DNA of 64,000 bases from Hydrolagus affinis (taxonomy: Eukaryota): positions 1 through 64,000 of the forward strand of contig JAAILG010001291.1 in NCBI GenBank assembly GCA_012026655.1, written 5' to 3'. Shown here one piece after another: positions 40,773 through 43,664 of the stretch (positions are counted from its first letter, which is position 1; each line of letters opens with the position of its first letter). Made by a program: the position numbers and the translations under genes. The notes under the pieces are model-generated. The model saw only the letters and a list, made by a program, of their open reading frames with translations, had not been told where the DNA came from and did not search any database.

Positions 40773-41102
40773 GTTGGTCACTCATCTATTAACTCTCTGT
40801 ATTTTATGGTCAATCCTGATGCCATGGTGCATATACGTTACCTTTTTCCCCCTTCATTATAAGTATATACCCTTTTATTTTTTCTTTTAAAAAAAAAGTA
40901 TCCGAACACTTATGTAGAACGGTAAGCTTCCAAGAGAAACTGTTGCTTTTTTTATATAGATAAGTGAAATGTGTGAATGACCTCTGAACCATCATTCACC
41001 CATTTCTGCACGTAACTTATATACACCATGCGTAGACCGTAAAATGCATAAAGTTATGCTGATTTTGTCCACTTTGGAGGACTACCGTGTGTTTGCTGCA
41101 TA
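40744..41102 (+). promoter_or_regulatory. Putative Q/R-site A-to-I editing duplex: intronic inverted repeat plus exon-complementary sequence TTTGCTGCATA (41092-41102)
   Basis: 40790-40811 pairs with 41035-41056 (20/22 including 2 G-U); 40823-40841 pairs with 41012-41030 (17/19); the ECS pairs with exon TATGCAACAAG (40743-40753). This is the layout of the GRIA2 intron-11 editing substrate. Confidence 0.75.
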
Positions 41103-43664
41103 CCTCATTTTACGGTCGACATTCCAGGTGTATATAAAATTTCACTCCTTCCTGAAAACAGAGCGAGCGAGCGAGCGAGTGAGCTCCAATAACTAATGTT
41201 TGTTGCCGAATGATTTTCCAGTGTTCAAAAATAGGAGCCTCATTCTGCACCATGTGCAACTTGTAAACAAAAAGGAAATTTCTTGCACCCACATAAGTAA
41301 TAGAAAGACAGATCCTGGCCGTGAAAACTATAACAGAAAATTTCACAGTGAAACCTCTGCTCTCGATTGCTGATTGATATGCCACCAACATGTTTACCTT
41401 GTAGGACAGTATATTTCTACATAATTTTCCTGGCTGGCTTTCTTTAGCAACGTTCTGAGTGCAAAACGCAGAGGTTTTTAAATCGTGCTTGAATAATAAT
41501 GATGCTCTACAAAAGTTACGGGGTCTGATTCTAACTGAGCAGATAATAAGGCCTGACAAGTGGAAGAGCTGAGACCAAGCTCACCGGGAGAACCAGTATT
41601 TCATTTCACTGCCGACAGGAATCAGGCATTTTACACCTGAGATTATTTTGCAGGGATATGGGGAGTAAAGCGAGGGAGAGGGATTGAGTTGGATAGCGTT
41701 TAAAAATTCAAAGAGCCAACACAGACACGAAGGGCCGAATGGCCTCCTTTTGCACTGTATAATTGTATGATTCTGTGATTCTATTTGTCTGGCCAGCGCT
41801 GAAGGTGAACTTCCAACTGAAGGTAGTAAGATTAATCATTACTAGAGTTGGAGTCCTGCATCACTGAGGTTTGCATCCTGGAATTTGAATCGAAACAATA
41901 CTTTTAGGTGCTCTGAGCAATATTAGCAGTGCCTTGGGATGTCCTCCCAATGTGAAAGGCGCTATATAATTTTGTATTGTATTACCAGTTACTTTGAATT
42001 TCCCTCAACATGACTATAGGACTATTAGAAGTCAGGAATGGATAGCATTTACCACTGATGTGGCCTCCTTTATCTATCAACATCCTGTGACTTTCCAGTG
42101 GGAATTCATATGCTTATGGTAAACAGGGATCTCATGGCACTAATAAGTGGTTAACTTTGTGTTGACACACAGCTCTTAAATGTTATCTCACTATGTTAGC
42201 TCAAGTACAGTACAAAATTATCCAATCCTATAAAGGGAACAGTATAAGGGAGATTGCTAGCAGTAAAAGGTGGTAATGAATAACATAGTGATGCTACGTG
42301 TAAAAGATTGATGCATGTTAACTCCTGCAGTATGTGGATGGAAATAAGACCATGAAAATAAGGCTCATTCAAGCACTTCAGACTCTTAAGTATTGATGAG
42401 AATCAGCATTCTGGACCAATTTTCATTCCAAATGAATAAGAAGGGATGTGATGCAGATTTTAAAACATTGATAAGCATGGATAATGTAATGTTATTTATA
42501 AAGACCACTTACAGTTATATAGCTTCTTTCATGCAGGTAGCTTCAACTAAAACCAGAGATTAAAATATTTAAAATATTTCTCTAGAAAAACAGTGAATAT
42601 GTGGAATAGATTTTCTGCAGAATCATCCATTGTATCAGTTAAAATTAAGTAAAGACTTTAAAAATTTTGTTTGGAAATGGATATCAATAGATAAAGATGA
42701 GCAAATATTCTCTGCAATATGGAAGTTTCTGTGAAGCTGGGAGGACGGATCAGTGACAATGGGGTATAGTTGGCTAGCAAGATAAATTTGTTGTCTAAAG
42801 TTAGATTAGCCTAAGGTTTGATTAACTTTGAAAAGATATTTCACAGAGCGTTAGCTTCTTGGAGCTTTAGCCTGTAGTTGGTTGCCCGCCTCAAGTAGCC
42901 CATGACAGGATAGTTTGGCACCATCCTTCATCCAGACTGTTCCTCACAGGCAGGAAGCTACAGTTATCAATGAGGACTATTATGGAATCTAATGGGCGAG
43001 CACATTTCAATTCATGCTGGGGTGCAATCCGGATGTCTCCTGAGCCTGGAAAAGCCTAGTCCCAGATAGTATGCAGGAATACCCAATTGCTACTGTGCTT
43101 TTCCAGTTCAACCTCCAGGCCAGTATGAAGCCCCAATACTCACAAAAATGTCTCGCAGAAACTCCCTCCTACATATTCTGCTTTCAAAGCTGAGTTCCTC
43201 AAATCAGCATAACATGTGTAGCATGCTATAAACTTACCGGAGGCATGCCTACTTGGATTCCTTAATAATGGAATGCCACTGGAATCATTGTGTTTTAGAT
43301 TGGCTTGGGCTGAAAGTCTAACTGACCTTAGCCTAGAAAAGCATTTTGTCTTAAAATTTAAGATTGTGGCAAACTCTAAAATGAATTTTTATGTGGAAGC
43401 CAGTTCTTCTTAAAAACTATAGAAAACTGGCTTTCAAAACTAAAATTAACTGTAAGAATATTCAAAAAAAATTCCATCTTAAATTTTAAGAACAAATGGT
43501 CTCATGGTTATAATTTTTTTCAGTAAATTAAAGTTAATTCCAATTCTAGGTGGAAGACAAAGTTTGGTTTGTGCCCTCTAAACAATATAGTCTTCATAGT
43601 GATTCGCAAAAAGTTTCACTGATGTGGTATTAATATAGCAGACAAACCAAACCTAGTAAGATTA

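Follow-up and report, generated by a model that had tools for sequence, protein, structure and literature searches.

Host gene and editing substrate

The analysed window is a stretch of 64,000 nucleotides from the genome of Hydrolagus affinis (contig JAAILG010001291.1). It carries on its forward strand an AMPA receptor gene which, as identified from its translated exons, is GRIA4 and not GRIA2. The exon at 40399-40772 has GluA4 as its top PDB match (255 bits vs. 236 for GluA1/2), and two N-terminal exons of the same gene also match GluA4 best, which brings the number of such exons to three. The linker-pore stretch of 40 residues is 100% identical to Callorhinchus milii records and at most 95% identical to shark records, which marks the genome as chimaera-type. 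The beginning of the exon (40399-40420) reads RSQIGV, in place of RAQIGV in chimaera and shark GluA4 records and KAEIAV in the coelacanth; judged from the translation, these exon-start residues are a cartilaginous-fish feature adjoining the ligand-binding domain. Farther downstream, the end of the next-but-one exon (60370-60425) holds what we take to be the known R/G editing hairpin of the GRIA2-4 type, and one flip/flop-type exon lies at 63199.

Within its own genome the exon has four matches, the window itself and the loci L002, L003 and L004, which are placed on four contigs. The best matches of the latter three are GluA3, GluA2 and GluA1, respectively, and these names rest on the 40-residue linker alone; L003 is the GRIA2 ortholog of this genome. 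A fifth intron was obtained by a motif scan of metagenome contigs, which returned 34 loci, of which 33 were dropped as chance matches after translation and a blastn screen (among them L030, with just a short protein-motif match). The remaining locus, L022, comprises the GRIA2 exon of a vertebrate together with its intron and derives from another species than the window.

The following features, all on the + strand, compose the substrate in the window gene:

40399..40772, + strand: GRIA4 exon coding for M1-M2, equivalent to GRIA2 exon 11 (by translation and PDB match), with the GT of the 5' splice site at 40773
40742..40775, + strand: exon strand of the exon:ECS duplex, which spans the 5' splice site and forms about 26 expected pairs with 41068-41102
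40747..40749, + strand: Q/R codon CAA; the candidate edited A at 40748 pairs with 41097
40796..40841, + strand: arm A, the 5' arm of a long imperfect inverted repeat (editing inducer stem), with A1 at 40800-40811 and A2 at 40823-40841
40966..41006, + strand: small hairpin right before arm B, kept in place in five introns and differing in sequence
41012..41051, + strand: arm B, the partner common to arms A and C, with B2 at 41017-41027 and B1 at 41035-41046
41068..41102, + strand: ECS strand, whose core 11-mer (41092-41102) is identical to the mouse Gria2 ECS
41106..41117, + strand: arm C1, perfect complement of B1, 3 nt past the ECS
41127..41137, + strand: arm C2, perfect complement of B2

The mouse Gria2 ECS used for this comparison is printed in PMC7045468 (excerpts). 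In the computed fold, the 5' splice-site bases -3..+1 are paired inside the exon:ECS duplex. Arm A starts at about +48 from the Q/R A, the A:B stem amounts to 29-34 expected pairs, and an internal loop sets this inducer stem apart; in GluA2 the inducer element lies 45 nt downstream (PMC5654063, excerpts). Two marks of the GRIA2-type substrate are found here: the intron holds an ECS that can pair with the exon sequence surrounding the Q/R codon (probability of 0.98 that the Q/R A is paired), and a long imperfect inverted repeat lies about 45 nt downstream behind an internal loop. A GRIA2 host with a CAG codon is not found, the Q/R codon being CAA in the window GRIA4 and CAG in its three paralogs. 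The third A of this CAA (40749) faces a C of the ECS at 41096, a mismatch read from the sequence. This A is likely an ADAR target. Its conversion would leave the encoded residue unchanged and would give the Q/R A its favoured 3' neighbour again; the CAA A opposite the ECS C in GRIA4 probably serves as a further brake or as a synonymous priming edit. The A run at 41041-41044 in B1 likely corresponds to hotspot 2 of GluA2, given as an AAA that pairs with a UUU in the vicinity of hotspot 1 (PMC1920255, excerpts).

The hairpin before arm B falls in a region described as variable for GRIA2, and its z scores are -2.9, -3.1, -4.4 and -6.0 in the four paralogs and -1.5 in L022. Rfam covariance models gave 0 matches at E <= 1 for 40700-41300.

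A second partner of arm B

A preliminary description of this locus had reported that segments just past the ECS are perfectly complementary to parts of arm B. The complementarity was confirmed, as 41106-41117 and 41127-41137 are exact reverse complements of 41035-41046 and 41017-41027, respectively. The loop that this pairing closes (41047-41105) is 59 nt long and contains the ECS at 41092-41102, and arm B indeed has two partners, A or C, which are mutually exclusive in nested folds. The further claim that the local pairing traps the ECS holds in folds from which the long stem is barred, where B:C takes shape (24.7 expected pairs) and its loop encloses the ECS.

The B:C duplex of the window gene reaches -31.0 kcal/mol, a stability attained by 0 of 4239 background 45-nt windows of the + strand (best -23.8), and none of 200 shuffles of C gave a local B..C hairpin as stable as the native one. 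The hairpin beats 200/200 C-shuffles in GRIA1/3/4, 194/200 in L022 and 94/200 in the GRIA2-like gene. Within 3.4 kb, the best partner of C is B in the GRIA1/3/4-like genes (-30.0 to -33.3 kcal/mol), and not in the GRIA2-like gene; a better partner of C elsewhere in that range was sought in the GRIA1/3/4-like genes and none was found. An artefact of assembly is ruled out, since the same arrangement occurs in 4/4 AMPA paralogs on four contigs.

Conservation across paralogs

The expectation that the third arm should recur in GRIA2 and the other paralogs was borne out, as arm C is present in all four AMPA paralogs and in L022. Arm A, arm B, the ECS 11-mer and arm C follow one another in the same order in the four introns, with C starting 3-4 nt after the ECS, and the ECS core 11-mer is found in 4/4 paralogs and in L022. 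When the genome was scanned with the B-to-ECS pattern, exactly 4 matches were obtained, which are the four AMPA introns, and the reversed control gave 0. At the level of sequence, the whole Q/R editing substrate, comprising the ECS and both inducer arms, is thus a property of GRIA1-, GRIA3- and GRIA4-like genes and not of GRIA2 alone.

Mean identity among paralogs is 96% for C1, 89% for C2, 81% for the ECS strand, 80% for B and 77% for A. Outside the arms it is 46% for the C1-C2 spacer, which also varies in length, 41-48% for the flanking intron and 23-50% at fourfold-degenerate exon positions; over the exon stretch -10..+24 the paralogs share 91-100% identity. By this comparison arm C is old and constrained. 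Because C is common to all four paralogs, which agree at no more than 23-50% of their fourfold-degenerate sites, it is not a recent duplication, and the proposal that it was born from a short duplication of the 5' arm is not supported where a recent event is meant; an ancient duplication is a possible origin. The GRIA1-4 genes derive from early vertebrate genome duplications. Ancient gene conversion among the paralogs may have taken place as well.

C and B form 22/22 Watson-Crick pairs in each of GRIA1/3/4, and two mismatches and two wobbles are present in the GRIA2 of this genome (L003). B2:C2 considered separately has 10/10 Watson-Crick pairs in the GRIA1/3/4-like genes and 8/10 in both GRIA2. 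In GRIA1/3/4 arm A is a poorer match to B than C is, its A1 core having a wobble or a bulge and its A2 core an A-C mismatch; the A2:B2 helix of this genome's GRIA2 is without the A-C mismatch of the other three. In L022, B1:C1 retains 12/12 pairs, one of which is U-A for C-G while arm A keeps G there. Over the five sequences, 59/60 cells of B1:C1 are paired with 1 two-sided change, a suggestive covariation that is not significant with five sequences, 195/500 shuffles reaching 1 two-sided change. The test was limited to B1:C1 because B2:C2 is out of register in the GRIA1-like gene (L004) and in L022, and B2:C2 was compared sequence by sequence.

Several details accompany these comparisons. The A-C mismatch 41023/40830 of A2:B2 occurs in the GRIA1/3/4-like genes and in L022, with a G at that place in this genome's GRIA2-like gene. 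C2 of L022 has a C opposite the mismatch position corresponding to 41023, and its core equals the A2 core, mismatch included. Arm B2 of the GRIA1-like gene has a short tandem duplication inside. The linker between B1 and the ECS strand measures 26-28 nt in 5/5 introns, and its sequences are unrelated.

Protein records were also inspected (385 fetched, 378 with the Q/R site). Arginine at the Q/R site was found in 0/203 GRIA4-type and 0/175 GRIA3/GRIA1-type records, nearly all of which are genome-predicted and could not show editing. Among protein tails running into the intron, 3/64 of the GRIA4 type are arm-A-like, all from one cluster with a linker unlike the tetrapod and teleost types, and 11/27 of the GRIA3 type were flagged for arm A, 2 of which look like chimeric contigs. 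The records P0223, P0284 and P0299 and their cluster members suggest arm A traces in bony-vertebrate GRIA3 with teleost-type and mammal-type linkers. These tails faintly suggest that the element was lost from bony-vertebrate GRIA4 and left traces in GRIA3, a view that concerns arm A and not arm C.

Folding and energy landscape

In each of the four paralogs the long stem, composed of A:B and exon:ECS, is the winning fold at 37, 20 and 8 °C, with no more than 0.5 expected pairs of B:C, and B:C does not exceed 0.7 expected pairs at equilibrium in any unedited full substrate. When the window gene was folded as a series of lengthening prefixes, A:B was fully formed by 41050, a point 56 nt short of the start of C1, and exon:ECS by 41102; B:C had 0.0 expected pairs in 10/10 prefixes, values which describe the equilibrium of prefixes and not kinetics. 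The completion of both duplexes before C exists argues against a strict co-transcriptional attenuator. Deletion of C in silico leaves the probability of pairing of the Q/R A at 0.98. The preliminary description had proposed such a co-transcriptional switch; in the strict sense the proposal is not supported by the computed folds.

The energy gap between the long stem and the open state, for which the model error is several kcal/mol, is 6.3 kcal/mol in GRIA4, 7.6 in the GRIA3-like and 2.6 in the GRIA1-like gene, and 21.1 in GRIA2 and 32.8 in L022. With B:C barred, the gaps become 18.4 (GRIA4), 21.5 (GRIA3), 18.2 (GRIA1), 21.2 (GRIA2) and 32.9 kcal/mol (L022). The lowering of the gap due to arm C is therefore 12.2, 13.9 and 15.6 kcal/mol for GRIA4/3/1, as compared with 0.1 and 0.0 for the two GRIA2, a contrast between GRIA2 and the other genes which rests on one genome and one extra intron (L022). 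The B:C/A:B duplexes of GRIA1/3/4 have energies of -31.0/-32.1, -38.4/-34.2 and -33.4/-34.4 kcal/mol, B:C being about equal to A:B or more stable. A direct nested refolding path meets a barrier of about 59 kcal/mol, a heuristic value that ignores strand displacement through pseudoknots. A G mimic of editing at the A-C mismatch 41023/40830 raises the gap from 6.3 to 12.9 kcal/mol, so that editing there would lock the long stem.

Two triggers for the change of fold were considered and rejected. Low temperature is out in the model, as the gap widens at 8 °C. Loss of the exon does not suffice, as A:B keeps its advantage when the intron is folded alone (gaps 4.0, 1.5, 2.4 and 17.9, 18.5).

Effect of mimicked editing on the fold

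When A-to-G or unpairable mimics were placed at the Q/R, +4 and A1 adenosines, the window gene flipped to B:C (19-24 expected pairs), and mimics of the same type flipped the GRIA3- and GRIA1-like genes partly or fully. Neither GRIA2 (L003) nor L022 flipped to B:C under any mimic tried. With the inosine parameters of ViennaRNA and up to 6 edits, confined to counterparts of known GluA2 sites, neither the window gene nor the GRIA3-like gene flipped (B:C <=0.1); only the GRIA1-like gene did so, and in part (18 pairs for a single inosine). With mimics as well as with inosine parameters, edits placed in B1 can return the fold to A:B. Whether editing triggers the flip depends on the model used.

Discussion

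The passage of calcium through AMPA receptors is controlled by Q/R editing, which is regarded as a trait of GRIA2 only. The third arm described here is real, conserved and apparently undescribed, and its predicted strength as a rival of arm A separates GRIA2 from the three paralogs in the folding model. The GRIA2 substrate was studied in 50 vertebrates, one cartilaginous fish among them (PMC3553965, excerpts); the available excerpts of that paper describe no paralogs and no third arm and contain 0 mentions of GluA1, GluA3 and GluA4. The Q/R site is stated to be absent as an editing site from GluA3 and GluA4 (PMC3324117, excerpts), and no new abundant exonic editing sites are given for human (PMC8257547, excerpts). 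In the rows shown of PMC8096273, Q/R is listed for gria2a and for none of the gria3 and gria4 entries, two gria3a rows aside, and among the supplement rows searched of PMC8897444 human GRIA3 and GRIA4 appear with R/G only and GRIA1 is absent. Neither a third arm nor Q/R substrates of GRIA1/3/4 came up in full-text searches or in the literature compared, which also took in excerpts of PMC4053846, PMC4670233, PMC4018279, PMC8659423 and PMC13520880; a prior mention is possible in Kung et al. 2001 (PMID 11741603) and Bowie 2026 (PMID 41794641).

The best explanation, which is quite plausible and which we hold tentatively, is that arm C is an ancient built-in competitor that would render the Q/R editing fold metastable and keep the editing of GRIA1/3/4 partial. 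The long stem would form first, as the most stable fold. Once it has formed and been weakened by the first inosines, a helicase or a protein, C would take over B, and this takeover would remove the ADAR-recruiting stem, loop out the ECS and end further editing. In reporters, GluA2 is edited less at the Q/R site once an A:B-type stem has been deleted (PMC5654063, excerpts), so that the loss of A:B should lower editing. GRIA2 would reach near-complete editing by disabling the B:C exit, C having been eroded or outcompeted there. The editing substrate itself would predate the duplications that gave rise to GRIA1-4, and the perfect ECS kept in all four genes implies that the duplex is probably used in all four. 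Against the competitor speaks the fact that C is recognisable in both GRIA2 introns, though it never forms in the computed full substrate. This retention of C in GRIA2 is the main fact that a damper serving the non-GRIA2 genes alone leaves unexplained.

The persistence of C in GRIA2, with its two-sided change, favours another explanation, unlikely on balance and still worth serious attention, in which C acts on splicing in all four genes. B:C, formed after or instead of the long stem, would time the removal of the intron with no net damping of editing, either by releasing the 5' splice site after editing or by holding splicing until hotspot-2 edits weaken both A:B and B:C. The pairing of the 5' splice site inside the exon:ECS duplex is consistent with this, as is the observation that efficient splicing of mouse GluR-B needs editing at the Q/R site as well as at hotspot 2 (PMC1920255, excerpts). 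In the same work, breaking the pairing from the arm-A side was of no help and the mechanism was left open, which a second partner of B would fit. However, when the B:C state is computed, the splice site finds other partners and stays for the most part paired (probability of being unpaired 0.1-0.7), and neither GRIA2 flips in any mimic. It is improbable that C works as an on/off attenuator during transcription, with a share of nascent transcripts folding B:C directly and never becoming editable. B:C is local (59-nt loop), while A:B closes a loop of 170 nt, the B:C duplex in GRIA1/3/4 roughly equals or exceeds A:B in stability, and arm A covered by U1 or another protein would free B for C; yet the order of completion in the prefixes and the lack of B:C in all of them stand against this, and no trigger was identified.

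The two remaining explanations deny that C silences editing. In a pseudoknot, C would displace A only and leave exon:ECS in place, so that B:C would be an alternative element for ADAR recruitment or selectivity. By rough geometry the linker of 26-28 nt found in 5/5 introns could span a helix of 33 pairs, and inducer stems work independently of position (PMC5654063, excerpts), but the known internal loop of the long stem explains the linker length equally well and nested folding cannot compute a pseudoknot; we regard this arrangement as quite improbable. That C has no function in RNA is very improbable. It would then have been kept by template-switch repair of a quasi-palindrome in the DNA or be a neutral leftover copy of arm A, and its resemblance to A, carried in L022 as far as the shared mismatch, would agree with such an origin. 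A copied tract, however, is not expected to keep two helices alone around a spacer that differs in sequence (46%) and length, and the neighbouring neutral sequence is near saturation.

If the competitor reading is extended over the whole family, it leads to an account that is possible and somewhat doubtful. Q/R editing would have arisen once, before GRIA1-4, as a three-arm two-state switch; cartilaginous fishes would edit all four subunits tunably by means of C; GRIA2 would have become fully edited by erosion of C; and bony-vertebrate GRIA4 would have lost the element, with traces kept in GRIA3. A full substrate in four paralogs suggests an origin of Q/R editing at the base of the family and a later restriction to GRIA2, which would change the account of how calcium-impermeable receptors evolved. 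The conserved rival arm would represent a cis-acting negative element for ADAR, a counterpart of the editing inducer elements, and bears on two open points, namely why a single site is edited to nearly 100% and in what way the editing of intronic hotspots controls splicing. The four natural variants with different predicted energy gaps constitute a ready minigene series.

In bacterial attenuators and in the expression platforms of riboswitches, one strand has two mutually exclusive partners. The substrate presented here shares with attenuators the two mutually exclusive pairings of one strand (A:B vs. B:C) and, in the prefix folds, lacks the choice during synthesis. Unlike in those systems, the strands are made in an order that favours the fold formed first, neither a ligand nor a ribosome is known to act as a trigger, and the proposed output is ADAR editing or splicing and not termination. 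The AMPA R/G editing hairpin of GRIA2-4 (PMC3553983, excerpts) is likewise an exon-intron substrate kept across paralogs, with paralog-specific editing levels, but it is short and local and, in those excerpts, without a described rival arm. The closest known system is the ADAR2 substrate of the Q/R site in exon 11 and intron 11 of GRIA2 (GluA2) (PMC3553965; PMC5654063, excerpts of both), with which the window gene has in common the ECS 11-mer, the exon:ECS duplex over the splice site, the internal loop and the inverted repeat at about +48. It differs from that substrate in its occurrence in GRIA4, and also in GRIA1 and GRIA3, in the CAA codon of GRIA4 and in the third arm that lies past the ECS.
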